Source: an uncultured Actinomycetes bacterium
Lineage (GTDB): Bacteria; Actinomycetota; Thermoleophilia; Gaiellales; Gaiellaceae
DNA: 64,000 bases
NCBI GenBank assembly: GCA_963725965.1
Contig: CAVSAK010000009.1
Coordinates: forward strand, 78,290 to 142,289
Direction of reading: 5' to 3'
The notes under the pieces were generated by a model. That model ran no database searches and was not told where the DNA came from. It saw nothing but the letters and a program-made list of their open reading frames with translations. Below, one piece after another: positions 3,159 through 63,290 of the stretch (positions are counted from its first letter, which is position 1; every line of letters begins with the position of its first letter). Position numbers and translations under genes: made by a program.

Positions 3159-4355
3159 ATGGCGAGCTTCTCGGTCCGCTTCCTCGGCTGCAAGGTCTCG
3201 CACGTCGACGCGCACGCGGTGCGCGAGCGGCTGCTCGCGGACGGACACGAGGAGCGTGACTGTGCCGACGTGGTCGTCGTGAACACGTGCTGCGTCACGC
3301 ACGAAGCGGTTGCGAAGTCGCGCAAGGAGGCGGCTCGCGCGGCGCGTAGACACCGGCGGGTCTACGTCACCGGGTGCGGCGCGAACCTCGCCGGGGATGC
3401 CTTTTCCGGTTTGCCCGACAACGTCGTGGTCGTCGCGCGCCGGAGCGAGGAGACGCCGGAGTTCGTCGCCGGCGACGTCGGGGCGATCGGCTGCGTCCAG
3501 GCGGACGCCCGCCTCGACCGGGTCCGCGCGTTCGTCAAGGTGCAGGACGGCTGCTCGTTCTCGTGCCGCTTCTGCGTGATCCCACTCGTCCGCGGCGCAT
3601 CGCGCAGCCGTCCGGCCGAGGCCGTGCTCACCGAGATCCGTCGCCGGATCGCCCAGGGGCACCGCGAGGTCGTCCTCACCGGCATCAACCTCGGCTGCTA
3701 CCGCGACCGCGCCGCCGGCTACCGCCTGTCCCACCTCGTCCGCGAAGCGGGCGCGGCACCTGGGCTCGAGCGGCTGCGCCTCTCCTCGATCGAGATCAAC
3801 CACGTCGACGACGAGCTCGTCCGCGCGTTGCGCGAGACGCCGACTGCGAGCCGCCACCTACACGTGCCGCTCCAGTCGGGCGACGACGCCGTCCTGCGCG
3901 CGATGGGTCGCCGCTATTCCGTCGGCACGTACCTCCGCCGGCTCGAGCCGCTGTGCGCCGACTTCAACCTCACGAGCGACGTCATCGTCGGCTTTCCGAC
4001 CGAGGACGGGCGGGCTTTCGAGAACACGCTCCGCGTGGTGGGCGAGGCCGGGCTGACGAAGGTGCACGTCTTCCCTTACTCGCCGCGCCCGGGAACCGGC
4101 ACCGCTGCCGACGACCCGGTGTCGCCGGCGACGAAGAAGGAGCGGAGCGCACGGCTGCGCGCGGCGTCTCACGCGGCCTGCCTCGTCCACTGGCGCTCGA
4201 AGGTCGGTCGCGACGACGTGGTGCTCGTCGACCGCCCGGGTCGCGGCTACGGCGACGACTACTCCCCGTGGCTCGTCCCGGATTCGGCCCCGCTCGGCGA
4301 ACTCGTCGGCGTTCGGGGCGCCGCCGTCTCGGAAGAAGGGATCGTGGCGGCGTGA
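3159..4355 (+). CDS. mtaB: Radical SAM methylthiotransferase, MtaB-like (MiaB/RimO family)
   Basis: N-terminal MTTase domain (FLGCKVSHVD...VVVNTCCVTHEA), radical SAM CSFSCRFC box, and position after prmA as in the yqeV/mtaB synteny. Confidence 0.8.
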   Translation: MASFSVRFLGCKVSHVDAHAVRERLLADGHEERDCADVVVVNTCCVTHEAVAKSRKEAARAARRHRRVYVTGCGANLAGDAFSGLPDNVVVVARRSEETPEFVAGDVGAIGCVQADARLDRVRAFVKVQDGCSFSCRFCVIPLVRGASRSRPAEAVLTEIRRRIAQGHREVVLTGINLGCYRDRAAGYRLSHLVREAGAAPGLERLRLSSIEINHVDDELVRALRETPTASRHLHVPLQSGDDAVLRAMGRRYSVGTYLRRLEPLCADFNLTSDVIVGFPTEDGRAFENTLRVVGEAGLTKVHVFPYSPRPGTGTAADDPVSPATKKERSARLRAASHAACLVHWRSKVGRDDVVLVDRPGRGYGDDYSPWLVPDSAPLGELVGVRGAAVSEEGIVAA

Positions 4356-4663
4356 ACGACTGCCTCTTCTGCAAGCTCTACCACGAGGGCGACCTTGTCG
4401 CAGCGACGGACGGTTTCGTCGCGATCCGCGACATCAACCCGCAGGCGCCGGTGCATCTGCTCGTGATCCCCGAGCGCCATGTCAACTCGTTCCGCGAGAT
4501 CGGCGAGTTCACGGCCGACGAGGACAAGCGGATGCTCGAGTTCGTGGCCGAGGTCGCTGCACGCGGGGGGTTGACGGATTACCGTGTCGAGGTCAACGTG
4601 GGCCCAAGCGCGGGCCAGACGATTTTCCATCTGCACTGGCACATCAAAGGCGGCTGGGCTTGA
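4352..4663 (+). CDS. HIT (histidine triad) family protein
   Basis: GTG 4352 lies in a GTGA overlap with the mtaB stop. The sequence reads CLFCKL...NPQAPVHLLVIPERH...IFHLHWHIKGG (HxHxHxx motif). Confidence 0.85.
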   Translation: MNDCLFCKLYHEGDLVAATDGFVAIRDINPQAPVHLLVIPERHVNSFREIGEFTADEDKRMLEFVAEVAARGGLTDYRVEVNVGPSAGQTIFHLHWHIKGGWA

Positions 4664-4730
4664 GCCGTAGGCTCGACGGAGTCGAACAAGGAGTGGAGGC
4701 GGCGGCTTTGCCGGCGCCGGAGCGGAAATG
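4661..4730 (+). repeat. 70-nt intergenic element, copy A (TGA of the HIT gene to ATG of the yqeY-like gene)
   Basis: Near-identical to 50780-50849 (+) and to the reverse complement of 25573-25642. Contains a GC hairpin at 4698-4718 and GGAG five nt before the ATG. Confidence 0.85.
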
Positions 4731-5171
4731 AGCCTGATCGAGGACATCGACGACGAACTGAAGGATGCGATGCGGGCGCGCGACGCGGAGCGTCGCGACA
4801 CGCTGCGACTGATCCTCAACGCGCTCAAGAACTCGGAGAAGGAGCTGCAGCGTCCCCTCAGCGAGGACGAGGAGCTGCAGGTGCTGCAACGCGAGCGGAA
4901 GCAGCGGGTCGAGGCGGCCGAGGCCTTCCGCACCGGCGGGCGCGAAGAGCAGGCTGCGGCCGAGGAGCGCGAGCTCGACGTGCTCGAGGAGTTCATGCCC
5001 GAGCCGCTCTCCGAGGACGAGGTGGAGGAGATCGTCGATGATGTCATCGCCGAGGTGGGGGCGACGAGCATGGCTGACCTCGGCCGGGTGATGGCCGACG
5101 TGATGCCGCAGATCGCCGGCCGCGCGGACGGCTCACAGGTCAGCCAGATCGTCCGCGAAAAGCTCGCCTAG
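4728..5171 (+). CDS. GatB/YqeY domain protein
   Basis: 147 aa. MSLIEDIDDELKDAMRARDAERRDTLRLILNALKNSEKE is a typical YqeY N-terminus. Confidence 0.85.
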   Translation: MSLIEDIDDELKDAMRARDAERRDTLRLILNALKNSEKELQRPLSEDEELQVLQRERKQRVEAAEAFRTGGREEQAAAEERELDVLEEFMPEPLSEDEVEEIVDDVIAEVGATSMADLGRVMADVMPQIAGRADGSQVSQIVREKLA

Positions 5172-6552: not shown

Positions 6553-7512
6553 GTGCAAACGGTTCTCGACGTCTCGAACGAGGTCGCGGCGGAGCTCGCG
6601 GGCATCGGCGACCCGGTTCTCGAGGCGCTCCGGGACCGGCTCGGCTGCACCGTCAACCTCCGCGGCAACCGCCTCACGCTGGCCGGAGACGGCCCGAAGG
6701 TCGCGGAGGCGCAAGCAGTGGTCGAGGAGCTCGTCGAGCTCGTCGAGGGCGGCCAGGAGGTCGGCGCAGGCACCGTCGACGCCATCCTCGGCGCCATCGA
6801 CCAGGCCGAGGACGTGCGCGAGATTTTCTCCGACGTCGTCTGGTCGCACCGCGGCAAGCGGATCACGCCGAAGACCGTCACGCAGAAGCGCTACGTCGAC
6901 GCCATCCGCGAGTGCACCGTCACCTTTGGCATCGGCCCGGCGGGGACGGGCAAGACATATCTCGCGATCGCGCTCGCCGTGGCGGCTTTGTCGGAGAGGC
7001 AGGTCGGCCGCATCATCCTCACCCGCCCCGCGGTCGAGGCCGGCGAGCGGCTGGGCTTCCTGCCCGGCGACGTGCTCGCAAAGGTCGACCCGTACATGCG
7101 GCCGCTGTTCGACGCGCTCTACGACACGATGGACCCGGAGAGGCTCAACGCGTACATGGAGCGCGGCACGATCGAGGTCGCGCCGTTGGCATTCATGCGT
7201 GGCCGGACCCTCAACGACAGCTTCGTCATCCTCGACGAGGCGCAGAACACCTCTCCCGAGCAGATGCAGATGTTCCTCACCCGGCTCGGCTTCGGCTCGA
7301 AGATGGTGGTGACCGGGGACGTGACCCAGGTCGACCTGCCGCGCGAGCAGGCGTCCGGCTTGATCCAGGTGCGCGAGATCCTGGCCAGCGTCGACGGAAT
7401 CGCGTTCGTCGAGTTCAGCCATCAGGACGTCGTCCGCCACAAGCTCGTGCAGCGGATCGTGGAGGCCTACAAGCGCCACACCGAGCAGACCGGGTCGCAG
7501 CGGAGCCGGTGA
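6553..7512 (+). CDS. phoH: PhoH-like ATPase (PhoH/YbeZ)
   Basis: Walker A GIGPAGTGKTYLAIALAV, DEAQN, and a PhoH C-terminal region. The ORF track starts at 6418; GTG 6553 is preferred because it gives a PhoH-sized protein and leaves a divergent promoter gap. Confidence 0.88.
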   Translation: MQTVLDVSNEVAAELAGIGDPVLEALRDRLGCTVNLRGNRLTLAGDGPKVAEAQAVVEELVELVEGGQEVGAGTVDAILGAIDQAEDVREIFSDVVWSHRGKRITPKTVTQKRYVDAIRECTVTFGIGPAGTGKTYLAIALAVAALSERQVGRIILTRPAVEAGERLGFLPGDVLAKVDPYMRPLFDALYDTMDPERLNAYMERGTIEVAPLAFMRGRTLNDSFVILDEAQNTSPEQMQMFLTRLGFGSKMVVTGDVTQVDLPREQASGLIQVREILASVDGIAFVEFSHQDVVRHKLVQRIVEAYKRHTEQTGSQRSR

Positions 7513-16822: not shown

Positions 16823-16908
16823 TGCCGAAGGTGGGGGTCGAACCCACACGGCCCGTTAAGGCCACCGGATTTTGAGTCCGGCGCGTCTGCCAGTTCCGCC
16901 ACTTCGGC
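16823..16908 (-). tRNA. tRNA-Leu (anticodon CAA), no encoded CCA
   Basis: Reverse complement: GCCGAAGTGGCGGAACTGGCAGACGCGCCGGACTCAAAATCCGGTGGCCTTAACGGGCCGTGTGGGTTCGACCCCCACCTTCGGCA. It has a 7-bp acceptor stem, anticodon stem CCGGA/TCCGG with loop CTCAAAA, a long variable arm, and T-loop GGTTCGA. Confidence 0.9.
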
Positions 16909-24790: not shown

Positions 24791-25575
24791 CCGAGCTCGG
24801 CGAGCAGCGGGCCCGCCTCCGCCTCGACGTCGGCGATCTGCTCCGGCGTCAGCTCCCGGTGCCAGCGTCCGATCGAGGAGTCGCGGAAACGGTCGAGCGC
24901 TCGATGCGTCGAGGTCACGTTCGAGCCGAGAAACTCCACGAGCCGGTCCGCCACGCTCGCGAGCCCCTCGTAGCGAATCTCGAGCAGGCGATCGCCGGCG
25001 TCCGCGGCTCGCACCGCCTCGACGTAGCGCCGCCACGCCCACGCGCACCGGCGGGCGTTGCTCACCTCCGAGAACTCGTCGCGGCGCTCGGGCTCGACCC
25101 AGAAGCGAGGCTCGGACCCGTACGGGAGTCGCGCGTCGTCCTGCCCGGCGTGATCCGCGTTCAGCCAGCCGCGTTCGAGGAGTGAGCAGACGACGTCGCG
25201 GCCGTCCCGCAGCACGTGCACCGCGAGCGCCTCGGGATACGCCTCGAGGGCCGCGTCGAGGACGTGCGCCGTCTCGGGAGTCTGCTCCACGCCGCGGAGT
25301 CCCCAGGCCAGACCGAGACGCCGGATGCGCTCGAGGATCCTCCGGAGGTCTTCCGCTGAGGGGTCAAGCGGCAGCGCCGCCTTCCACGGCGTGACCTCAC
25401 CGAAGTCGACGAAGCCCGGCAGGCCGCCGATCGCGCGGCCGACGAACGTCGTCCCCGAGCGCGGGCAGCCGACGACGAAGACGAGGCGCTCCTCGCGTCC
25501 GAGCCTCGGCCGCTGCACCAGTGCGCGCTCCGCCACCCGAGCGCCTGCGGTGGCGTAGTCGAGCAACGCGCTCAC
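24781..25575 (-). CDS. Sulfotransferase family protein
   Basis: 5'-PSB-like P-loop FVVGCPRSGTTFVGR, and later VLRDGRDVVCS. GTG 25575 is chosen as the start because it occupies the start-codon position of the 70-nt element; the track start TTG 25596 lies inside the repeat. Confidence 0.75.
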   Translation of the reverse strand: MSALLDYATAGARVAERALVQRPRLGREERLVFVVGCPRSGTTFVGRAIGGLPGFVDFGEVTPWKAALPLDPSAEDLRRILERIRRLGLAWGLRGVEQTPETAHVLDAALEAYPEALAVHVLRDGRDVVCSLLERGWLNADHAGQDDARLPYGSEPRFWVEPERRDEFSEVSNARRCAWAWRRYVEAVRAADAGDRLLEIRYEGLASVADRLVEFLGSNVTSTHRALDRFRDSSIGRWHRELTPEQIADVEAEAGPLLAELGYS

Positions 25576-25642
25576 TTCCCGCTCCGGCGCCGGCAAGGCC
25601 GCCGCCTCCGCTTCTGGGTGAGCTCCGTCGAGCCTACGCTCA
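25573..25642 (-). repeat. 70-nt intergenic element, copy C (TGA of the hypothetical gene to GTG of the sulfotransferase gene)
   Basis: Reverse complement: TGAGCGTAGGCTCGACGGAGCTCACCCAGAAGCGGAGGCGGCGGCCTTGCCGGCGCCGGAGCGGGAAGTG. It aligns along its full length with copies A and B. Confidence 0.85.
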
Positions 25643-26068
25643 CGACATCTCCGGCAGCGAGTCCGGCACGAGCCCGAGCCCCTGCCTGAGCGTCTCGATC
25701 AGATGCTGTGCGTCGGCGAGCAGTGATGCGAGCACCTCGATCTCGTCGCGCGGCACCTCGAGCGTCACTCGCACGGGCGAGCGGGCCGTGGAGGAGAGCG
25801 CGATCGTCTCGATCTCGTCGGTCGCGAGCGCGGTCACGTCGAGATATTCGTCCCTCGCGAGGCGCTGCCCGGGCACGAAGCGCTCCGCCGCCGCCCCGAG
25901 GCGCTCCGCCAGGACTCCGGCGTAGTGGCCGGGCACGCGGATCGTCGCCTCGCCGCTGAGCAGTCCGATGGTCGCCGACCAGCTCCCGTAGGCGGCTCCG
26001 TCGCCGTCGTGGCGCACGACGTGCACCGCGAGGGTGGCCGTGACGCCGATCGGATAGCGCTCCTCCAT
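25640..26068 (-). CDS. Hypothetical protein
   Basis: 142-aa ORF with ordinary composition and no motif recognised. Its TGA stop is the first triplet of repeat copy C. Confidence 0.5.
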   Translation of the reverse strand: MEERYPIGVTATLAVHVVRHDGDGAAYGSWSATIGLLSGEATIRVPGHYAGVLAERLGAAAERFVPGQRLARDEYLDVTALATDEIETIALSSTARSPVRVTLEVPRDEIEVLASLLADAQHLIETLRQGLGLVPDSLPEMS

Positions 26069-26121
26069 CCGGGCCAGCCTAGCCCCGAGGCCCGGATGAC
26101 CCAGCTATATTGACCCGCCGC

Positions 26122-27603
26122 ATGGCGAACGAGACCATCAACGATCCGCGGCTCGAGGAAGGTGTCTGGACGACCGATCCCGAGAGCGGCGAGCTCGTCC
26201 CCGACTACGAGTCCACCTTCCCCACGATCGAGGAGGGGCAGGTCGTGAACGGCACCGTCGTCCGCGTCGACAAGGACGAGGTTCTGGTCGACATCGGCTA
26301 CAAGTCGGAGGGCGTCATCCCGGTCTCGGAGCTTTCGATCCGCCGCTCGATCAACCCTGTGGACGAGGTGTCGATCGGAGACGACATCGCGGCGCTCGTC
26401 CTGACGAAGGAGGACGCCGAGGGCCGGCTGATCCTCTCCAAGAAGCGGGCGCGCTTCGAGATCGCGTGGAAGGCGATCGAGACTGCGCACGAGAAGGGCG
26501 AGCCCGTCACGGGCCGCGTGATCGAGGTCGTCAAGGGCGGCCTCATCCTCGACCTCGGCGTGCGGGGTTTCCTGCCCGCGTCGCTCGTCGACATCCGCCG
26601 GGTGCAGGACCTCGATGAGTTCCTCGGCCAGGAGCTCGAGTCCAAGGTCATCGAGCTCAACCGCTCGCGCAACAACGTCGTCCTCTCGCGCCGCGCCGTG
26701 CTCGAAGAAGAGCGCAAGGAGCAGCGGCAGAAGATCCTCGACCGCCTCAACCCCGGCGACGTCGTGGAAGGGACGATCTCGAACATCGTCGACTTCGGCG
26801 CCTTCGTCGACCTCGACGGGATGGACGGCCTCATCCACATCTCGGAGCTTTCGTGGAGCCACGTCAACCACCCGTCGGAGGTCCTGGAGATCGGCCAGAC
26901 GGTCAAGGTGCAGGTTCTGGACATCGACCGCGAGCGCCAGCGGATCTCGCTCGGCCTCAAGCAGACGCAGACCGATCCGTGGCAGCAGGTGCTCGAGAGC
27001 TACCAGGAGGGCGACGTCGTGCAGGGCACGGTGACGAAGGTCGTCACCTTCGGCGCCTTCGTCGAGATCCTGCCCGGCGTCGAGGGGCTCGTCCACATCT
27101 CCGAGCTCGCGCAGCACCACGTCGAGAACCCACGCGAGATCGTCTCGCAGGGCGACAAGGTGAACGTCCGCATCCTCGAGGTCGACGCCGACCGGCGGCG
27201 CCTCTCGCTCTCGCTCAAGCGGGTCGAGGAGGGGATGCCGGTGCAACCGATGCCCGGCGAGGAAGCTGCCCCGCCCGCGCTCGGGCTGTCCGACGAGGTC
27301 TTCGCCGACGAGGTTCCCGCCGCCGAGGCGCTCGAGGCGCCGGCGGAGGAAGAGCCTGCCGCCGAGGGCGAGCCCGAGGTCGTAGCCGAGGTCGTCGAGG
27401 AGGAGCCTGCCGCGGAGGTCGAGGCCGAGGTCGTCGAGGCGGAGGAGCCTGCGGCCGCGGAACTCGAGCCGGTTGCCGAAGAGGAACCCGTCGTCGAGGT
27501 CGAGGCCGAGGCGGAGCCTGTCGCAGAGGCGGAGCCTGCCGTCGAGGCAGAGCCGGAAGCCGAGGCCGACGCCGACGCCTCCGACGAGGCCCCGGCCGAA
27601 TAG
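26122..27603 (+). CDS. rpsA: 30S ribosomal protein S1 with a long acidic C-terminal tail
   Basis: Four clear S1 repeats (GQVVNGTVVRV..., VTGRVIEVVKGG..., VVEGTISNIVDFGAFVDL..., VVQGTVTKVVTFGAFVEI...) followed by an E/A/P/V-rich tail. An in-frame TTG at 26110 is an alternative start. Confidence 0.95.
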   Translation: MANETINDPRLEEGVWTTDPESGELVPDYESTFPTIEEGQVVNGTVVRVDKDEVLVDIGYKSEGVIPVSELSIRRSINPVDEVSIGDDIAALVLTKEDAEGRLILSKKRARFEIAWKAIETAHEKGEPVTGRVIEVVKGGLILDLGVRGFLPASLVDIRRVQDLDEFLGQELESKVIELNRSRNNVVLSRRAVLEEERKEQRQKILDRLNPGDVVEGTISNIVDFGAFVDLDGMDGLIHISELSWSHVNHPSEVLEIGQTVKVQVLDIDRERQRISLGLKQTQTDPWQQVLESYQEGDVVQGTVTKVVTFGAFVEILPGVEGLVHISELAQHHVENPREIVSQGDKVNVRILEVDADRRRLSLSLKRVEEGMPVQPMPGEEAAPPALGLSDEVFADEVPAAEALEAPAEEEPAAEGEPEVVAEVVEEEPAAEVEAEVVEAEEPAAAELEPVAEEEPVVEVEAEAEPVAEAEPAVEAEPEAEADADASDEAPAE

Positions 27604-28727: not shown

Positions 28728-29837
28728 ATGAGGATTCGCGCGGCGGTGCTCGAGGAGTTCGATCGACCGCTCGAGGTCCAGGAGGTCGACCTCGCCGAGC
28801 CGAAGGCGGGCGAGGTGCTCGTGCGTCTCGTCGCCTGCGGTGTCTGCCACACGGATCTGTACACCGCGTCGGGCGCCGACCCGTCCGGCTACTCGCCGAC
28901 GGTGCTGGGCCACGAGGGCGCCGGCGTCGTCGAGCGCGTCGGCGACGGCGTAGCTTCGCTCGCGCCGGGCGACCACGTCGTGACGCTCTTCTCGCCGCAG
29001 TGCCGCGAGTGCATCCACTGCCTCGACCCGCGCACGAACCTCTGCCTGGCAATTCGTGAGCAGCAGAACCAAGGCTTCCTCCCGGACGGAACGACGCGCC
29101 TCTCCCGCGACGGCGAGCCGATCCGGCACTTCATGGGGACTTCGACGTTCGCCGAGTACACCGTCATGCCCGAGATCGCGCTCGCGAAGATCTCGCCGGA
29201 GGCTCCGCTCGACCGGGCGTGCGTCTTCGCCTGCGGTCTCTCGACGGGACTCGGCGCCGCGCTCAACACCGCGAAAGTCGAGCCCGGCTCGACGTGTGTC
29301 GTCTTCGGCGCGGGCCTCGTCGGGCTCGGCGCCGTCGCCGGGTGCAGGCTAGGCGGTGCTTGGCGGATCATCTGCGTCGATCCGGCGCAGCAGCGGCTCG
29401 AGCTCGCGCGTGGCCAAGGCGCCAACGACACCATCACCGGCGGGCCCGAGGTTGTCGAGCAGATCCTCGAAATGACCGGAGGGTTCGGCGCGGACTACAC
29501 CTTCGAGGCGACGGGCCGCGTCGACGTGATGCGCCAGGCGGTGGAATCCGCCCGCATGGGCTGGGGTCTGGCGACGGTCTGCGGCGTGGCCGGGAGAGGC
29601 GAGACGCTCGACGTCGTGCCGCGCTTCCTGATCACGGGCCGCCGCGTCGCGGGCTCGTCGTTCGGCGGGGTCAAAGGGCGCGACCAGGTGCCGCAGTTCG
29701 TCGACCGCTATCTCGCCGGCGACATCGACCTCGATCCGCTCATCTCCCACTCGATCTCGCTCGACGACGTCAACCGCGGCTTCGAGCTCATGCACGCGCA
29801 GGACGGCATTCGCAGCGTGATCGCCTTCGACGGCTGA
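28728..29837 (+). CDS. Zinc-dependent alcohol dehydrogenase, class III-like
   Basis: [17 protein letters not shown], the structural-zinc Cys cluster [15 protein letters not shown], and GAGLVGLG. Confidence 0.88.
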
Positions 29838-31867: not shown

Positions 31868-34318
31868 CTACTTGCCGACCTTCAGCGCGACCTTCGAGCC
31901 CTTCGTCAGGTGCTTGCCGGGCTTGGGGCTCTGGGAGATCACGTGACCCTTGTTCTTCTTCTTCGACTTGACCTTCGTGATCTTGCCGACACCGCAGTGA
32001 TGGCCCTTGATCGCCCGCTTGGCCGCGGCGAGCGTCTTGGCCTTCACCTTCGGCACGATGCACTTCGTAACGAGCGGCGGCGGGGGCGAGAAGAAGAAGC
32101 TGGCGGTGACCGTGGTGTCGGTGTTCAGCGTGATGACGCAGGTGCCGGTACCGGAGCAGCCGCCGCCCGACCAGCCCAAGAAGCCGGTGCCGGTTGCAGT
32201 CGCTGTGAGCGTGACCTGCGTCCCGGCGCTGAACGCGTGGGAGCAGGTCGACCCGCAATCGATCCCGGCCGGACTGCTCGTGACGCTGCCCCTCGGGCCA
32301 AGTAGTGAGACCGACAAAGTTCGAGTCAGCCCGGGCGTACCGAAGATCGCGTTGACGGTTGTGTCGGCGCTCAGCGTCACCTTGCACGTGCCGGTGCCGG
32401 ATGCCGGTCCGCACCCGCCGCCCGACCATCCCTCGAAGACCGAGCCGGCGGCGGCAGTCGCACTCAGCGTCAGCTGGGTCCCGGAGTCGAACAAGCTCGA
32501 ACAGGTAGAGCCACAGTCGATTCCGGCCGGACTACTCGTCACCGTGCCGGTTCCCGGCCCACCCGTCGTCACCGTCAGTGTGTGCTTCGGAGGCTGCGTC
32601 GGCTGATCCCAGATCGCCTGGTCGCCGTCGTCGATCGGCGTGCTCCCTGTCCCGTTCAAGGCGACGATCTCCGCGCAATACCCGGCGCCGGCTGTAAGTC
32701 CAGTGACGTTGACCGAGACGTCGTGGAACGTGCCGTCGACTTCGGCGGACGGTAGCTGGGTGGGGGTGGTGCTGACGGCGGGTGAGCCCGAGGCGCCGTT
32801 GCTGGTACACCACTCCGAGCTGTCGAAGTCGTACTCGACCACGTAGCTCGTGCTCTGGCCGGCAGCGTTGACGTCGCCGTCGATCGTGGCTGTTGTGAGC
32901 CCGGTGGGGTTGGCGTCGAACGTGTCCACAAACGGTGCGCCCTGGGTCCAGGGGACCTGGCCTCCCTGGGCGTCCCCGTTGGCGTCGGTCGCGACCAGTT
33001 GGGCGCAGTAGGCGATGCCTTCGGTCAGCCCGGTCAGGTCGACGGAGACGAAGTCGTCGTCGGGGATCGGGTCGGTGCCCGCGATCGTCTGCGGCGAGCC
33101 GGACGTGCCGCCGCTCGTGCACCAGTCGGAGGTCGCGAGGTCGTACTCCGCGGCATATGTCGTGGCCTCGCCGTGAGGATCGATCAGGCCCTCCACGGTC
33201 GCCGTGGTCGCTCCGGTCGAGTAGGTGTCGAATGTCAGAACGTCGGGCGTTTCCCCCTGTGTCCACGACAGTTGGGCGCCGTCGACTTCACCGTTGACGT
33301 TGGTCGCGATGAGCCGGGCGCAATAGTCGGAGGCTGCAGTAAGCCCAGTCAGGTCGACGGAGACGCCGTGGAAAACCTCGTCCGTAAATCCGAGATCTGT
33401 CGCGTCGGTCGCTTTCCCCGGCGAGCCGGAAGTGCCGCCGCTCGTGCACCACTCGGAGCTGGACAGGTCGTATTGCACGGCGTAGCTCGTCGTCTCGCCG
33501 TTCGGATTGACGACGCCGGTGACCGTCGCCGTCGAGCCTCCCGTCGGCGAGGCGGCCCCGGTCGTCGCCCCCGGCTTGTCCACGGTGAACCTCACGAAGG
33601 TGGTCCCGAACGCTTCCCCGCCGGCGCTGAAGGCTGCTGCTCGCGCGCAGTACCCGGCTCCGGTCTGCAGTTCGAACAGCTTGACCGAGACGTCGTGGAC
33701 GGTGTTGTCGGTGAAGCCGAGATCAGCGTTGTCTGAGATGTGCGGCGTCGGTCCCGATTCGCCGTCGCTTGTGCACCAGGTTGAGCTGGCGAGGCCGTAC
33801 GCAACGTCGTAGACCGTGTCGTTCCCCTCTGGATTGATCGCGACGTCTACCGTCGCCGACGCCGCCGAGGTTGCGAACCCGTCGAGCGTGTCGACCTCGG
33901 GCGGGTCCTGCTGCCACGTCACCTGCGGCCCGTCGCCTTCTCCGTCGCCGTTGGTCGCAATGAATCGCCCGCAGTACGTGGTGAACCGGGTCAGTCCGGT
34001 CAGGTTCACCCCGACCTCGATGGCAGAGTTGGACCCGAGTGGGGTGGGGCTCGTCGCGTTGTCCGGCGAACCCGACGTGCCACCGCTCGTGCACCACGTG
34101 GAGCTCTGGACGTCCCACTCGACCGCGTAGCTCGTCGTCGCGTCCAATTGGGGGTCGATGTCACCGGCGAATGTTGCCGTCGTGAACCCGGTTGCTTGGA
34201 CAGAAGTCTTCGTGACGACAGGTGCCGCAGCCGAGGCTGCGGCCGGCAGGCAAAGCGTCACGGCGATCCCGAGAAGGCCGACCAGGAAGAGTGGGGCGCG
34301 GCGCGGACGCATGGTCAT
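31868..34318 (-). CDS. Large secreted repeat protein: signal peptide, 5 Cys-bearing FN3-like repeats, 2 InlB-B-repeat-like modules, C-terminal PASTA-like domain
   Basis: Signal peptide MTMRPRRAPLFLVGLLGIAVTLCLPAAASAAA. Five ~105-aa repeats share Y.V.YD..SS.WCTS.G.SG...VSV.LTGLT...YCA...A.N. Two modules contain VTSSPAGIDCGSTCS...GWSGGGC..TGTC. The tail is CIVPKVKAKTLAAAKRAIKGHHCGVGKITKV...GHVISQSPKPGKHLTKGSKVALKVGK. Start alternatives are 34312 and 34369. Confidence 0.8.
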   Translation of the reverse strand: MTMRPRRAPLFLVGLLGIAVTLCLPAAASAAAPVVTKTSVQATGFTTATFAGDIDPQLDATTSYAVEWDVQSSTWCTSGGTSGSPDNATSPTPLGSNSAIEVGVNLTGLTRFTTYCGRFIATNGDGEGDGPQVTWQQDPPEVDTLDGFATSAASATVDVAINPEGNDTVYDVAYGLASSTWCTSDGESGPTPHISDNADLGFTDNTVHDVSVKLFELQTGAGYCARAAAFSAGGEAFGTTFVRFTVDKPGATTGAASPTGGSTATVTGVVNPNGETTSYAVQYDLSSSEWCTSGGTSGSPGKATDATDLGFTDEVFHGVSVDLTGLTAASDYCARLIATNVNGEVDGAQLSWTQGETPDVLTFDTYSTGATTATVEGLIDPHGEATTYAAEYDLATSDWCTSGGTSGSPQTIAGTDPIPDDDFVSVDLTGLTEGIAYCAQLVATDANGDAQGGQVPWTQGAPFVDTFDANPTGLTTATIDGDVNAAGQSTSYVVEYDFDSSEWCTSNGASGSPAVSTTPTQLPSAEVDGTFHDVSVNVTGLTAGAGYCAEIVALNGTGSTPIDDGDQAIWDQPTQPPKHTLTVTTGGPGTGTVTSSPAGIDCGSTCSSLFDSGTQLTLSATAAAGSVFEGWSGGGCGPASGTGTCKVTLSADTTVNAIFGTPGLTRTLSVSLLGPRGSVTSSPAGIDCGSTCSHAFSAGTQVTLTATATGTGFLGWSGGGCSGTGTCVITLNTDTTVTASFFFSPPPPLVTKCIVPKVKAKTLAAAKRAIKGHHCGVGKITKVKSKKKNKGHVISQSPKPGKHLTKGSKVALKVGK

Positions 34319-34401
34319 GAGTGACTCGCGGAGCGGGCGAAAGCTAGCACCGAAAAGATCGCGCTTCAATCAACTGGCCCGGCAGGAACGGGCCGGATCC
34401 A

Positions 34402-50297: not shown

Positions 50298-50768
50298 GTG
50301 CCCCGGGGGGACGAAGACGGCGAGCTGCTGACCAGCGCCGCCTACGAGAGCATCGAAACGGAGCTCGCAGAGCTCGAGGGCCCGAAGCGGAAGGAAGTGG
50401 TGCAGGCGATCGCGACGGCGCGTGCGCACGGCGACCTCTCGGAGAACTTCGAGTACCACGCGGCGAAGAACGAGCAGGGACTGCTCGAGGCGCGGATCCG
50501 GGTACTGCGTCACCGGCTCCAGCACGCGACGATCCTCGACGAGGAGGCTGCCGCGGCGAGCGGCGTCGTCACCGTCGGCTCGCGCGTGGAGCTCGAGCGC
50601 GACGACGGCGAGAAGCTCGAGATCGAGATCACGGGCGTCGGCGGCGTGTCTCCCGACTCGCCCGTGGGACGGGCACTACTGGGGAAGGTCCCGGGCGACG
50701 AGATCGAGGTCGAGGCGCCGCGCGGCCGGTGGCGGGCGCGCATCGTGTCCGTCGGGCGTGCCTCGTAG
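50298..50768 (+). CDS. greA: Transcription elongation factor GreA
   Basis: HGDLSENFEYHAAKNEQ and a C-terminal SPDSPVGRALLGKVPGDEIEV. Confidence 0.9.
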   Translation: MPRGDEDGELLTSAAYESIETELAELEGPKRKEVVQAIATARAHGDLSENFEYHAAKNEQGLLEARIRVLRHRLQHATILDEEAAAASGVVTVGSRVELERDDGEKLEIEITGVGGVSPDSPVGRALLGKVPGDEIEVEAPRGRWRARIVSVGRAS

Positions 50769-50779
50769 ACTTGGAGGCG

Positions 50780-50849
50780 TGAGCGTAGGCTTGACGGAGC
50801 TCAGCAAGGAGTGGAGGCGTCGGCTTTGCCGGCGCCGGAGCGGGAAATG
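50780..50849 (+). repeat. 70-nt intergenic element, copy B (ends at the ATG of the udg gene)
   Basis: TGAGCGTAGGCTTGACGGAGCTCAGCAAGGAGTGGAGGCGTCGGCTTTGCCGGCGCCGGAGCGGGAAATG. Here the initial TGA lies 11 nt after the greA TAG stop. Confidence 0.85.
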
Positions 50850-51512
50850 AGTGCGGTGCCGGTCGCTGTGGAGACGCTCGAGGAGTACGGGGCGGCGACC
50901 GCGAGCTGCACGCGATGCCGTCTCGCGCAAGGACGGACGCAGGTCGTCTTCGGAGCCGGGAACCCGCGCGCCGACCTGATGTTCGTCGGCGAGGCGCCCG
51001 GCTTCCACGAGGACAAGCAGGGCGTCCCGTTCGTCGGTCAGGCGGGGAAGCTGCTGGAGGGGCTGCTCGCAGGTGTCGATCTCCGCCGTGAGGACGTCTA
51101 CATCGCGAACGTGCTGAAGTGCCGGCCGCCGGGGAATCGCGACCCGCAGCCAGACGAGATCGAGGCGTGCGAGCCGCACCTCTTCCGCCAGATCGAGCTG
51201 ATCGAGCCGAAGGTGATCGCGACGCTCGGCAACTTTGCGACCAAGCTCCTCTCGGGCCGCCCACTCGGCATCACCCGCGTGCACGGCCAGGAGCAGGAGC
51301 TGACGATCGCCGGCCGGAGCGTCCTCCTCTATCCGCTTTACCACCCGGCCGCCGCGCTCTATACGCCGGCGATGCTCAAGGTGCTCGAAGCCGACTTCGC
51401 CCGCCTGCCCGGGCTGCTCGGTGCCGCCGAGCCCGCGCCGCTCGCAGCTCTTCCAGAGCCTGAGCCGGAGCCTGCGGTCGAGGCTCCCGCGGAACAGCTC
51501 GGACTCTTCTAG
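50847..51512 (+). CDS. udg: Uracil-DNA glycosylase, family 4
   Basis: [38 protein letters not shown] and YHPAAAL. ATG 50847 is preferred over GTG 50811, which lies inside the repeat. Confidence 0.88.
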
Positions 51513-62174: not shown

Positions 62175-63290
62175 GTGAGAACGCTCACCCGGATCGCGGC
62201 CTCCGCCGGCGCGCTCGCGCTCGTCACCGGCGCCATCGAGCTGCTGAAGGGCCACGTGCCCGTACTCAGCCTGTCCGTGCTCTACCTGCTCGCGATCATC
62301 CCCGTCGCGGTCGCATGGGGAATCGTCTATGCCGTCGGCACGGCGGTCGGGAGCATGCTCGCGTTCAACTTCTTCTTCCTCCCGCCGCTCTACACGCTGA
62401 CGATCAACGACTCGCGCAACTGGTTCGCGCTGCTGGTCTTCCTCGTCACCGCCGTCGTCGTCAGCGAGCTCGCGACCCGTTCCAGGGGGCGCGCCGAGGA
62501 GGCCGAAGCCGCGCTCCAGGTGCTGCGGGAGCTGACCGAGGAACGCGAGCGGCTGGCCGCGGAAGCGCTCGACGCCGAGGCGTTGCGGCGCAGCGACGCG
62601 ATGAAGACGGCGGTGCTTCGAGCCGTCAGCCACGACCTGCGCTCGCCGCTGATGGCGATCCTCACCTCCGCGGGAGCGCTCGCCCACGGTGAGCTCTCGT
62701 TGGCGGCGGCGGATCGTCACGAACTCGTCGAGACCATCCTCGTCGAGGCGGAGCGACTCGACCGAATCGTGCGGAACCTACTCGACCTCTCACGGCTGCA
62801 GGCCGGAGCGGCCGCGCCGGAGCCGCGCGACTGGCCCGTCGACGACCTGGTCCTCCAGGCACTCGACGGAGTCGAGGCAGGAAGCCGGGTGGAGGTCGTG
62901 CTGCCCGAGGACGACTCGCCACTCGTCCGCGCCGACTTCCACCAGGCAGAGCGCGTCGTCGCGAATCTCGTCGAGAATGCGCTTCGCTACTCCCCTCCCG
63001 ACGAACCGGTGCGCGTACAGGTGCGGGAGACGGGATCGGAGGTGCTGGTGCGTGTCGTCGACCACGGCCCGGGGATTCCGTCCGGAGAGGCCGACCGTAT
63101 CTTCGAGCCGTTTCAGCGTGGTTCGCTCCGCATTCCGGCACGCGGCGCCGGCCTCGGGCTCGCGATCGCGCGCGGCTTCGCGGAGGCGAACGGCGGCCGC
63201 GTGTGGGTCGAGTCCCACCAGGGACAGGGCGCTACGTTCGTACTTTCGCTCCCGGTCGCGCGCGGCGCCCGCGTGCAAGTTTCGGCGTGA
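62175..63290 (+). CDS. Sensor histidine kinase, KdpD C-terminal type (DUF4118-HisKA-HATPase) without the KdpD N-terminal sensor
   Basis: DUF4118-like TM block (LLAIIPVAVAWG...FNFFFLPP), H-box AVSHDLRSPL, N-box NLVENALRYS, and G-boxes DHGPGI and GAGLGLAI. Confidence 0.85.
   Translation: MRTLTRIAASAGALALVTGAIELLKGHVPVLSLSVLYLLAIIPVAVAWGIVYAVGTAVGSMLAFNFFFLPPLYTLTINDSRNWFALLVFLVTAVVVSELATRSRGRAEEAEAALQVLRELTEERERLAAEALDAEALRRSDAMKTAVLRAVSHDLRSPLMAILTSAGALAHGELSLAAADRHELVETILVEAERLDRIVRNLLDLSRLQAGAAAPEPRDWPVDDLVLQALDGVEAGSRVEVVLPEDDSPLVRADFHQAERVVANLVENALRYSPPDEPVRVQVRETGSEVLVRVVDHGPGIPSGEADRIFEPFQRGSLRIPARGAGLGLAIARGFAEANGGRVWVESHQGQGATFVLSLPVARGARVQVSA

Follow-up and report, generated by a model that had tools for sequence, protein, structure and literature searches.

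The MIRUs are widely used as typing markers. According to the summarised accounts of Supply et al. 1997, they are intercistronic and carry tetranucleotide direct repeats at their flanks (PMC3184786; PMC12548453). These accounts also describe MIRU ORFs that overlap both neighbouring genes, and insertion at start codons with a -4 spacing (PMC3184786; PMC12548453). The idea that such a bridging ORF spares operon expression rests on few MIRU loci. Classical MITEs (Correia/NEMIS, ERIC) are non-autonomous and dispersed, are co-transcribed with their neighbours, carry short flanking duplications and may affect expression. Ogata et al. are said to have described in 2000 that the Rickettsia palindromic elements (RPEs) are mobile repeats that survive in frame inside protein-coding genes. 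RPE inserts are about 100-150 bp long and add a peptide segment in a tolerated region. At the ends of IS200/IS605 elements, flanking DNA pairs with a guide, as known from the IS608 mechanism. The REPs are mostly extragenic, located at the 3′ ends of genes and often arranged as inverted pairs, and to our knowledge they have not been reported to carry bridging ORFs. REP/BIME elements and GTAG-REPs (SMAG) are short GC-rich intergenic palindromes with a GTAG motif, mosaic or clustered, and are presumed to be non-autonomous mobile elements (PMC3184786).

Here we describe a short repeat from numerous uncultured Gaiellales of soil. On comparative sequence grounds, it is probably a mobile intercistronic repeat of the MIRU type, one that would leave the coupled translation of its neighbours intact.

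The three copies in the window

The analysed window is a stretch of 64,000 nucleotides from an uncultured member of the Gaiellaceae. The initial annotation had claimed a 70-nt repeat at positions 4661-4730 (+, copy A), 50780-50849 (+, copy B) and 25573-25642 (-, copy C), and these coordinates as well as the end-to-end alignment have been verified. The 31-nt core of the element, searched with up to three mismatches, has three matches in the window and none in 100 dinucleotide shuffles. With a covariance model built from 127 members of the element family, the three copies score 77.8-84.3 bits. The shuffles and the model scores rule out a chance origin of the repeat. The runner-up match in the window, at 29336-29398, scores 20 bits; it was inspected by eye as a possible fourth, decayed copy and was found to be no copy. 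Thus, the window contains exactly three copies.

The neighbouring genes are those named in the initial annotation, namely HIT and YqeY for copy A, GreA and a family-4-type UDG for copy B, and an unknown gene and a sulfotransferase for copy C. It was also right that all three copies are oriented with transcription, as are nearly all members of the family. The 70-nt coordinates hold, but the unit is better bounded one base wider on each side (4660-4731, 50779-50850 and 25572-25643). Bounded in this way, every copy corresponds to a 24-codon frame that runs from RTG or TTG to TGA.

The whole unit of copy A (4660-4731, +) contains the 24-codon bridge frame TTG...TGA, encoding LSRRLDGVEQGVEAAALPAPERK followed by the stop. 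The TTG overlaps the HIT stop codon TGA at 4661-4663, and the TGA at 4729-4731 overlaps the YqeY start codon ATG at 4728-4730. The left target copy, (T)TGAGCC at 4660-4666, is host-derived and is also the left arm of stem 1, while the right target copy, ATGAGCC at 4728-4734, includes the YqeY start codon. The 61-nt insert at 4667-4727 is missing from 71 of the 75 related HIT/YqeY junctions; element-free junctions read ..GGCTGGGC-RTGAGCCTG.., with the target in a single copy. The insert starts with the family-invariant 14-nt loop GTAGGCTCGACGGA (4667-4680), followed by the right arm of stem 1, GTCGAAC (4681-4687). This arm is degenerate, with three of the six modelled pairs formed; the related locus L158 reads GGCGAAC at this position. 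Hairpin 2, GGCGGCGGC-TTT-GCCGGCGCC (4698-4718), comprises nine positions with one G.G mismatch. The SD-like GGAG that follows it (4719-4722) lies 5 nt upstream of the YqeY ATG. This hairpin and a GGAG located 5-6 nt before the start codon had been correctly recognised from the beginning.

The unit of copy B (50779-50850, +) carries a 24-codon bridge frame GTG...TGA, and its TGA at 50848-50850 overlaps the UDG start codon ATG at 50847-50849. The initial annotation had every copy begin with TGA, but in copy B this TGA is not the stop of the upstream gene, since GreA ends at the TAG at 50766-50768 (+), 10 nt upstream of the copy. Stem-loop 1 of copy B (50780-50803, +) consists of TGAGC, the loop GTAGGCTTGACGGA and GCTCA; hairpin 2, GGCGTCGGC-TTT-GCCGGCGCC (50816-50836, +), is followed by GGAG at 50837-50840. 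Copy C (25572-25643, minus strand) has the 24-codon bridge frame GTG...TGA, encoding VSVGSTELTQKRRRRPCRRRSGK followed by the stop. Its GTG overlaps the stop codon TGA (25642-25640) of the upstream 142-aa ORF, and its TGA overlaps the GTG start codon of the sulfotransferase gene (25575-25573). Stem-loop 1 of copy C, with TGAGC, the loop GTAGGCTCGACGGA and GCTCA, is located at 25619-25642 (-), and hairpin 2, GGCGGCGGC-CTT-GCCGGCGCC, at 25586-25606 (-), followed by GGAG at 25585-25582. The poorer fits within the window are the 10-nt gap that separates copy B from the upstream stop and the degenerate stem 1 of copy A.

Conserved structure and distribution of the family

Further copies in related genomes were found at no fewer than 103 loci in about 72 assemblies. 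A 22-nt pattern matched at least 119 genome-contig stretches, and among the matches listed the whole element is present in 103. The MAGs that contain these 103 loci all bear the label Gaiellaceae, Gaiella, Gaiellales, Thermoleophilia or, at a broader level, Actinomycetota/Actinomycetes; 16 matches among those listed, from Streptomyces and others, contain the short pattern alone and not the whole element. The DNA identity between the window and several element-bearing MAG loci is 75-85%. No match to the element was obtained in viral contigs, plasmids and phages. When the whole window was compared with Rfam at the gathering level, a tRNA was the sole match, and the best matches in the element region had E > 1; the element, which had not been recognised as a described motif, indeed corresponds to no Rfam family. 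A literature search on the core sequence and on repeats in Gaiellales returned nothing. The element is apparently a member of an undescribed family of short non-autonomous mobile repeats of the Gaiellales/Thermoleophilia.

The core of the element is 61-65 nt long, the tandem period is 68-70 nt, and at least 111 sites (about 130 units) are present in the 103 or more loci. The element occurs as single copies, as tandem arrays and as mosaics. Arrays of two to five units are found in L016, L037, L060, L094, L100 and L115, and the mosaics result from separate duplication of modules 1 and 2. Terminal inverted repeats were considered and rejected: the 5′ 22 nt compared with the reverse complement of the 3′ 22 nt score 5.0, which equals the shuffled control (mean 4.8).

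The element consists, in order, of a 5-6-bp covarying stem with a 14-nt loop, a purine-rich spacer, a GC hairpin and GGAG, the last located 3-6 nt before the next start codon in the family. Stem 1 closes the invariant 14-nt loop, and hairpin 2 is a near-invariant 9-bp GC hairpin. The small hairpin GAGCC-GTA-GGCTC put forward in the initial annotation is not the conserved structure. The covarying stem is instead formed by the 5-6 nt before GTAGG and the 5-6 nt after GACGGA, and the small hairpin was dropped as the conserved fold in favour of this long-range stem on the grounds of covariation and RNAalifold, which recovers stem 1 unprompted. All six pairs of stem 1 vary on both sides in the alignment of the family. 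The covariation of this stem is 0.265. Shuffled alignments give 0.097, with 0 of 500 attaining the score of the real alignment, and sliding the partner columns gives 0.02-0.06. At one stem pair, C-G, T-A and G-C are all found across orthologous copies inside ORFs. The GTAG is invariant and sits within the loop of stem 1; a short GCTC-GACG-GAGC hairpin after GTAG is possible in some subtypes only, and its positions are invariant.

Hairpin 2 is paired in 96.8% of cells. A U.G pair is present in 93 of the 127 sequences; it would be C.A on the opposite strand, and the fold is therefore strand-specific. The fold energies of single copies on the sense strand give z-scores of -0.3 to -1.3, which are unexceptional at 70% G+C, so that fold energy alone is uninformative. 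Conservation is higher in the core than in the coding DNA next to it, both between orthologous copies and across about 72 species. Copy A and the copy in L158 differ at one of 61 positions, compared with 9.3% of the yqeY DNA (p = 0.019).

Insertion sites and the bridge reading frame

Context statistics were compiled over 111 true sites, after removal of eleven spurious matches to module 1 only (two mismatches). The genes in the loci were called with a home-made codon-usage score and no annotation was used. The downstream gene is co-oriented with the element at 95 sites versus 5, and the upstream gene at 85 versus 8; both flanking genes are co-oriented at 77 sites versus 3 (p = 1.4e-19). The upstream stop codon lies within the left arm or is the TAG of GTAGG at 55 of 85 sites, and an in-frame start codon is located 1-12 nt after GGAGCG at 67 of 95 sites. 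About 15 sites have no co-directional upstream gene.

An ORF that extends from an RTG overlapping the upstream stop to a TGA overlapping the downstream start is present in 35 of 44 junction copies. The exact end of the ORF on the downstream start is also a property of arrays of 137, 206, 275 and 377 nt. The distance from the left RTG to the downstream start equals 3n+2 at 38 of the 44 sites (p = 5e-13) and is usually 68 nt, which corresponds to 23 codons. Each of the window copies A, B and C likewise has a 23-codon ORF that ends in a TGA overlapping the downstream start. In copies A and C, the ORF start and the upstream stop overlap; in copy B, the ORF starts 10 nt after the GreA stop.

The initial annotation had read an indel in copy A as proof against any role of a reading frame. 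This cannot be maintained, since all three copies keep the 23-codon ORF across the element. The 12-codon mini-ORF assigned to copy A does end in a TGA overlapping the ATG, but it is just the tail of the 23-codon ORF. The observation that all copies are 70 nt long despite the pair of indels in copy A (one C gained, one G lost) proved to be the key clue. Across the family, the lengths of the left arm and of the tail compensate each other: the frame is kept in 30 of 33 cases versus 15.7 +/- 2.7 in shuffled combinations (0 of 20000). The frame is also kept by 9 of the 12 length variants. The element is open in two sense frames, and the frame switches inside some copies. Since the element uses two frames and its indels offset one another, it is the length of the frame that is conserved and not the peptide. 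To some extent, the 68-nt spacing might go back to a few founder subfamilies and not to selection at the individual sites. The length variants and the compensation test speak against such inheritance, but the copies are not independent events.

At the level of the sequences compared, the element has been shown to come and go at 4-nt RTGA overlaps between the stop and start codons of co-directional genes. Among the HIT/YqeY junctions, L158 shares the insertion of copy A, L189 has an independent insertion of another subtype, and L159 has a decayed copy. Two further junctions, L198 and L184, contain apparent deletion footprints, TGAGC-ACC-ATGAGC and GTAGGGC. L094 was rejected as a clean empty site for copy A, as HIT and YqeY form one continuous frame there. 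Pairs of filled and empty orthologous junctions are L055/L043, L021/L001, L013/window 7509 and L008/window 63287. The window site of the L013 pair is an unoccupied GTGA overlap at 7509-7512 (+), and the filled junction in L013 has ATGA on both sides. That of the L008 pair is an unoccupied GTGA overlap at 63287-63290 (+) between kinase-like and response-regulator-like ORFs. A third unoccupied GTGA overlap, at 4352-4355 (+), is located at the HIT start; L182 and L138 have the element immediately within the 5′ end of HIT, and in L182 it reads in frame with HIT. The presence and absence patterns may also arise from recombination or gene conversion instead of transposition.

Inserted elements are bordered on each side by a copy of (R)TGA(GC(C)), the left one being the upstream stop plus the stem arm and the right one the downstream start. 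RTGA(GC) flanks the element on both sides at 41 of 101 sites, and at 15 of these 41 the first base of the flanking repeat differs (ATGA versus GTGA). The right junction is enriched for ATGAGC. A strict target duplication was rejected, as left arms without TGA show no flank duplication above the shuffled control. For the TGA class, the duplication test is uninformative because of the common TGAGC motif.

The stop/start junction is the main niche of the element, and a minority of copies are located inside ORFs. The identities of the host proteins of these copies were judged by eye from the translations, with no family search. An ORF resembling a PHP-domain DnaE contains an in-frame copy in L040, L058, L073, L087 and L102 and is empty in L019; the empty allele already has the left arm at four of five positions. 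Other in-frame copies are found in ORFs resembling an S9-type peptidase, an ABC-F ATPase and a double-cupin protein, and at the 5′ end of HIT.

Origin of the element and comparison with known repeats

In the MIRU-like reading, a ribosome that ends the upstream gene would re-initiate on the bridge ORF, pass both hairpins, terminate on the downstream start codon and re-initiate there. Insertion would then leave translational coupling and operon expression intact. Copies landing inside genes would survive only if they are in frame, and tandem arrays may result from repeated insertion into the regenerated target or from unequal recombination. Two of the roles considered in the initial annotation, the REP/MITE-like repeat and translational coupling, thus reappear as the two halves of this explanation; the promoter role, discussed below, is unsupported. 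The strong conservation of the whole core is not explained by the bridge ORF. Most likely, the invariant 14-nt loop, the covarying stem and the GC hairpin form a recognition surface for an agent that moves or maintains the element; this agent might be a transposase or nuclease that works on a single DNA strand, or else a factor that binds RNA.

Speculatively, and with little expectation on our part, the right arm of stem 1 (GGCTCA, GCTCA, GCCGCC...) could act as a guide that pairs with host sequence, which then becomes the left arm. In copy A and L189, the left arm of stem 1 is host DNA that predates the insertion. In the main subtypes, the target would comprise the stop codon together with the bases that open the next gene, TGAGC(C), and the covariation of stem 1 would record the choice of targets. 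Pairing between flank and guide would be similar to that at IS200/IS605 ends, here with an exchangeable 5-6-nt guide. If true, this would be a natural sequence-guided insertion system aimed at stop/start junctions.

Some of the same features would be expected of a host cis-regulatory RNA module, a structured intercistronic leader that would have spread by copying to many operons. A protein would bind this leader or an RNase would cleave it, which would set the stability or relative translation of the downstream cistron, and the bridge ORF would be incidental. The covarying stem with its changing base pairs in orthologous in-ORF copies, the strand-specific fold and the invariant loop, the nearly universal sense orientation and a core more conserved than its coding flanks in orthologous copies and across about 72 species are all in line with such a module. 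We nevertheless regard it as unlikely, since copies adjoin unrelated genes, occur inside ORFs and form arrays of variable number and mosaics, and most orthologous junctions of close relatives have no element or, in some cases, apparent footprints of its loss. Neither the 3n+2 rule nor the compensating indels are explained by an RNA module, the element has no Rfam match, and the fold energies of single copies are ordinary for the G+C content. Another alternative concerns the mode of movement and is therefore compatible with the bridge-ORF explanation. The element might be of the REP/BIME type, mobilised by a RAYT (Y1 HUH), or a hairpin-ended derivative of an IS200/IS605-type element, and recognition would be of its folded single-stranded DNA; its orientation and frame would then be a mere residue of selection. 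As in GTAG-REPs (PMC3184786), the conserved core has GTAG at its 5′ edge; palindromes lie near both ends, terminal inverted repeats are lacking, modules 1 and 2 duplicate separately into a BIME-like mosaic, and the U.G pair makes the fold strand-specific. The host-derived left arm in copy A and L189 also recalls the flank-to-guide pairing of IS200/IS605. However, GTAG is within the loop of the covarying stem and not 5′ of a stem, the arrays are direct with no inverted REPIN-type pairs seen, and the orientation to genes follows transcription on both strands of the window (77 sites versus 3 in the family). A tblastn search of the window and the loci (0.94 Mb) with IS200 and IS608 TnpA sequences, a weak test, detected no Y1 transposase (best E = 0.3). 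A REP-type origin appears quite unlikely.

Two further alternatives were considered. The initial annotation had pointed to TAGGCT as a possible -10 box, and the element would then be a portable promoter/leader cassette with an actinobacterial -10 (TANNNT) and a transcription start near GACGGAG. TAGGCT is invariant across the family, and at the roughly 15 sites that lack a co-directional upstream gene a role as 5′ leader is possible. Such a box is unsupported and fits poorly with copies in ORFs, in arrays and, in most cases, between tightly coupled co-directional genes in operons. A consensus scan for paired boxes, which does not capture -10-only promoters, found no -35/-10 pair of the sigma-70 type in copies A and B, nor was an intrinsic terminator found there. 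As a promoter would explain neither the covarying stem nor the frame rule, this reading is very improbable. A protein-coding repeat, which would encode a conserved peptide or extend the downstream proteins at their N-termini, is suggested by the open sense frame of every copy and by the copies translated within proteins, if those ORFs are real. Yet two frames are used with switches inside copies, the resulting peptides are unrelated (e.g. MSRRLDGG..ALPAPER in one), the variation tracks base pairing and not codon positions, and neither array period (68 or 70 nt) is divisible by 3. As a general explanation, a coding repeat is refuted by the frame data, and we give it next to no credence.

The MIRU-like reading has several implications. 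The Gaiellales family offers more than 100 natural insertions in about 72 species, with a frame-length rule, compensating indels and in-frame survival in genes, and it shows gain, loss and footprints at one junction. This comparative evidence suggests that small mobile DNA passes the filter of selection if translation can proceed through the insert. The relay cassette of stop, 23-codon ORF, SD and start is a candidate for bicistronic design in high-G+C hosts. The element can also cause mis-annotation in Gaiellales MAGs, in the form of false N-terminal extensions and Gly/Ala-rich inserts.

Each of the known repeat classes shares part of these features. Like REP/BIME, the Gaiellales element is short, GC-rich and palindromic, with a GTAG motif and mosaic arrangements; unlike REPs, it is co-oriented with genes, forms direct arrays and has GTAG inside a loop. 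In-frame insertions in genes, with orthologues lacking the insert, are shared with the RPEs, although they represent a minority of the Gaiellales copies, and the RPEs are longer, belong to an unrelated lineage and do not resemble the element in sequence. The element differs from MITEs in having no terminal inverted repeats and in its target, which is a stop/start overlap and not TA or the like. As far as the MIRUs are described in the summarised accounts, they are of similar size (40-100 bp) and share with the Gaiellales element the intercistronic position in operons, the sense orientation between co-directional genes, short flanking direct repeats with filled and empty sites, internal GC-rich inverted repeats, tandem arrays and the phylum Actinomycetota. 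A further parallel is a small ORF that overlaps the stop codon of one neighbour at its beginning and the start codon of the other at its end. The hosts are different, Mycobacterium for the MIRUs and Thermoleophilia/Gaiellales MAGs for the element described here. We do not place the element in the MIRU family proper and liken it to MIRUs by the described features. What distinguishes it from MIRUs is the two-hairpin core with an invariant 14-nt loop and a covarying stem that uses a host target copy as one arm, the separable modules that form mosaics, the recurrent in-frame insertions in protein-coding genes, and a frame rule backed by statistics across dozens of sites.

Copies in the window and in related genomes

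The observation of the repeat is real, and the three 70-nt stretches described in the initial annotation are present in the window and align from end to end. Copy A (4661-4730, plus strand) is located between HIT and YqeY, copy B (50780-50849, plus strand) between GreA and a UDG-superfamily gene, and copy C (25573-25642, minus strand) between a 142-aa ORF, which has no Pfam match, and a sulfotransferase gene. Copies A and B on the plus strand and copy C on the minus strand each agree with their own genes, so that the orientation tracks transcription, as had been proposed. A 31-nt core occurs three times in the window (G+C about 70%) at no more than 3 mismatches and was not found in 100 dinucleotide shuffles. 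With a covariance model built from 127 family members, the three copies score 77.8-84.3 bits; the next best match in the 64 kb, at 20 bits, was rejected as a copy.

The Rfam search proposed in the initial annotation revealed no family for the element. The sole Rfam or ARAGORN match in the window is a tRNA-Leu(CAA) at 16823-16908 on the minus strand. Internal repeats are also seen within ORFs of the window. The minus-strand ORF 31868-34369 (833 aa), which probably encodes a repeat-domain surface protein, contains four to five tandem repeats of about 315-327 nt with 60-77% identity (32769-34142). The ORF 26110-27603 contains a 255-nt duplication (26719-27065) and, at its 3′ end (27330-27577), short degenerate repeats rich in GAG, GCC and CCT codons at 12-81 nt spacing.

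Further copies beyond the window were found with a 22-nt pattern taken from the 3′ half of the element, which was searched against one-genome-per-species contigs. At least 119 contig stretches match the pattern, and nhmmer detected the whole element in 103 of those among the matches listed, giving at least 103 related contig loci. All 103 of these listed loci, from about 72 assemblies, belong to MAGs labelled Gaiellaceae, Gaiella, Gaiellales or Thermoleophilia or, with a wider label, Actinomycetota or Actinomycetes. The 16 listed matches in Streptomyces, Mesorhizobium and others contain the short GC-rich pattern alone and were rejected. The conserved genes of the window share 75-85% DNA identity with several of the element-bearing loci, and the window therefore belongs to the same group. 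At least 111 sites with about 130 units are left once spurious matches are discarded. Not counting the copy by which each locus was fetched, sites occur at about 8 per Mb, and at a similar density in a 292-kb sample of related metagenome contigs; the window, with three copies in 64 kb, is denser. Nothing similar was found in the viral contigs, plasmids and phages searched, nor was a printed occurrence of the core sequence found in the literature searched.

Anatomy and folding of the element

The element begins with a left arm, variable and 4-7 nt long, that frequently reads (A/G)TGAGC or (A/G)TGAGCC. This arm is followed by the almost invariant 14-mer GTAGGCTCGACGGA and by a right arm complementing the left one (GGCTCA, GCTCA, GCCGCC, GCCGGC, GGCGAC, GCACG and others). 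The two arms form stem 1 around the 14-nt loop. A purine-rich spacer, CAAAGAGCGGA or CAAGGAGCGGA, leads to hairpin 2, GGTGCCGGC-TTT-GCCGGCGCC, and on its 3′ side GGAGCGGG and 0-8 nt precede the start codon.

Stem 1 covaries. Among 127 distinct units of the matches listed, aligned without reference to structure, all six pairs (6/6) have changed on both sides, with pair counts including GC 63/CG 53, GC 95/AU 20, CG 43/AU 31/GC 22 and GC 53/UA 21/CG 17. Stem 1 scores 0.265 for covariation; shuffled alignments give 0.097, with 0 of 500 attaining the observed value, and sliding the partner columns lowers the score to 0.02-0.06. A separate count of the pairs agrees with this result, and RNAalifold independently gives the same stem. 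In the same 127 units 96.8% of the hairpin 2 cells are paired and there is hardly any variation, so that covariation neither supports nor opposes this hairpin. It carries a U.G pair in 93 of the 127 sequences, which is a C.A mismatch on the opposite strand; the fold is thus a property of the sense strand.

Modules 1 and 2 of the element duplicate separately (architectures 1122, 122 and 212), and whole units form direct arrays with a period of 68-70 nt and up to 5 units among the matches listed. A 92-nt tandem duplication in one related locus (L110, 7654-7814) has as its unit the element together with some 30 nt of flanking host DNA. The duplication runs antisense to the adjoining genes, the same site is empty in locus L025, and unequal recombination seems a better explanation for it than insertion.

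Position between genes and the frame of the bridge ORF

The coding strand and frame of each flank were assigned with a home-made codon-usage score trained on the long ORFs of the loci. Among the matches listed, element and downstream gene point the same way at 95 sites versus 5; for the upstream gene the numbers are 85 versus 8, and for both flanks together 77 versus 3 (p = 1.4e-19); the copies are not independent events, and such p-values therefore overstate the evidence. The upstream stop is the left-arm TGA at 42 of the listed sites and the TAG of GTAGG at 12, and an in-frame start lies 1-12 nt past GGAGCG, mostly at +3, +4 or +6, at 67 of 95. The family is placed in sense orientation exactly at stop/start junctions.

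The listed matches include 44 sites with a left-arm TGA and a start soon after the element. In 35 of them the bridge ORF, which opens on the RTG overlapping this TGA, ends at a second TGA that overlaps the start of the downstream gene, leaving RTGA at each end. Of the 33 listed single units, 22 have 68 nt between the RTG and the downstream start, and the others have 71 nt (4), 74 nt (4), 69 nt (2) or 76 nt (1). In arrays of 137, 206, 275 and 377 nt the ORF likewise ends at a TGA overlapping that start. Spacing of 3n+2 is found in 38 of the 44 listed sites (p = 5e-13, the copies not being independent). Two distinct frames of the element serve as the bridge, one encoding MSRRLDGG..ALPAPER, and some copies switch frame internally. 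A left segment of 6 or 7 nt is paired with a tail of 4 or 3 nt, and the frame is maintained in 30 of 33 sites versus 15.7 +/- 2.7 when segments are shuffled among sites (0/20000). Conservation concerns the frame length and not the peptide. Copies A, B and C all fit this rule, each counting 24 codons with the stop, and the rule explains why copy A, with one additional C and one G fewer, still has the common length, as noted in the initial annotation.

Gain, loss and relation to known elements

Orthologous junctions have gained and lost the element. The empty site cggCGTGAcgc in L043 corresponds to CGTGA[GCGTAGG...GGGACAC]CGTGA in L055. In the window, the GTGA stop/start overlaps at 7509-7512, 63287-63290 and 4352-4355 are unoccupied target sites; the orthologous junctions are filled in L013, in L008 and in L182/L138, respectively. 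A metagenome scan with the window YqeY returned 80 orthologous loci (80-96% amino-acid identity), of which 75 have a readable HIT|YqeY junction. No insert is present in 71 of the 75, nearly all of them showing just the overlap, as in ..GGCTGGGC-GTGAGCCTG.., and the window reads ..GGCTGGGC-TTGAGCC[61 nt]ATGAGCC-TGATCGAG. The comparison indicates that the copy A insertion comprises 61 nt and a second (N)TGAGCC copy, and that stem 1 here takes its left arm from host DNA. L158 has the same insertion, differing at 1 of 61 positions versus 9.3% in yqeY DNA (p = 0.019); it has lost the left stop, and HIT runs through the element to the TGA overlapping the YqeY start. L189 carries another subtype at this junction and is an independent insertion. 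A decayed copy, missed by nhmmer, lies between GTGA and ATGA in L159 (~1735-1832). L198 (~250-277), the locus most closely related to L189 (92.7% identity in yqeY), reads CTGAGC-ACC-ATGAGC, and L184 (~1290-1308) reads GGC-GTAGGGC-ATGAGCC, the HIT stop being the TAG of GTAGG; judged from sequence, both are apparent deletion footprints. In L094 (7300-7900, minus strand) the HIT and YqeY homologues share one unbroken frame with no stop (..HLHWHVLGRGERWHESPGLADGGERAVRLVERIEGEVKEAM..), which could be a fusion or contain an internal start. The orthologous junctions L031 4236-4305 and L097 4297-4365 have flanks about 87% identical and different stems (ATGAGC/GCTCAT versus GAGCGGC/GCCGCTC), reflecting either separate insertion events at a single hot spot or indels that compensate each other.

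The element also survives in frame within genes. A 63-nt copy is present in a PHP-domain DnaE-like ORF of five species, in one of them shortened by an in-frame deletion; the ORF of one species has no insert. One stem pair of these orthologous copies is C-G, T-A or G-C, and the differences look like compensatory changes in place. Further in-frame copies lie in ORFs whose translations resemble an S9-type peptidase (two units), an ABC-F ATPase, a double-cupin protein and the 5′ end of HIT.

The repeat on the two flanks falls short of a strict duplication, since ATGA and GTGA mismatch between the flanks in 15 of 41 sites among the matches listed, and copies without a left-arm TGA show no flank duplication. 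ATGA is favoured on both sides, versus 39% at element-free overlaps, and GC comes directly after the right-hand RTGA at 59% of sites versus 24.5%. The host-derived left arm of copy A and L189, together with the family-wide covariation with the right arm, raises the possibility of targeting through base pairing.

We infer that the repeat is mobile and non-autonomous. Selection would retain those copies that leave translation uninterrupted: at the RTGA junction a ribosome ending the upstream gene would restart on the bridge ORF, pass through both hairpins and reach the downstream start, where GGAG 5-7 nt before it may aid the ribosome. The comparative evidence for a bridge ORF keeping translational coupling is unusually clear. 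Movement or maintenance probably depends on the conserved loop and on hairpin 2, because the bridge ORF alone needs neither and orthologous copies are near-identical. No Y1 transposase was detected in 0.94 Mb, although this search was a weak one.

A classical MITE is ruled out, as the element ends are not mutual inverted repeats. Rickettsia palindromic elements insert in frame within genes, and the element resembles them in this respect. With REP/BIME it has palindromes and mosaics in common (PMC3184786) and also contains a GTAG, which here lies within the loop of stem 1, but REP/BIME show no gene orientation and occur in inverted pairs. Among described elements, the MIRUs of mycobacteria come closest. 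They are 40-100 bp, intercistronic and co-transcribed with the operon, have tetranucleotide direct repeats at both flanks and known filled and empty sites, and contain ORFs overlapping both neighbours; they are thought to enter start codons with -4 spacing, by which coupling is kept (PMC3184786; PMC12548453). The element has every feature of this kind that was examined; its host belongs to a different class, and the comparison was one of features. We therefore class it as a new family of the MIRU kind rather than as a MIRU.
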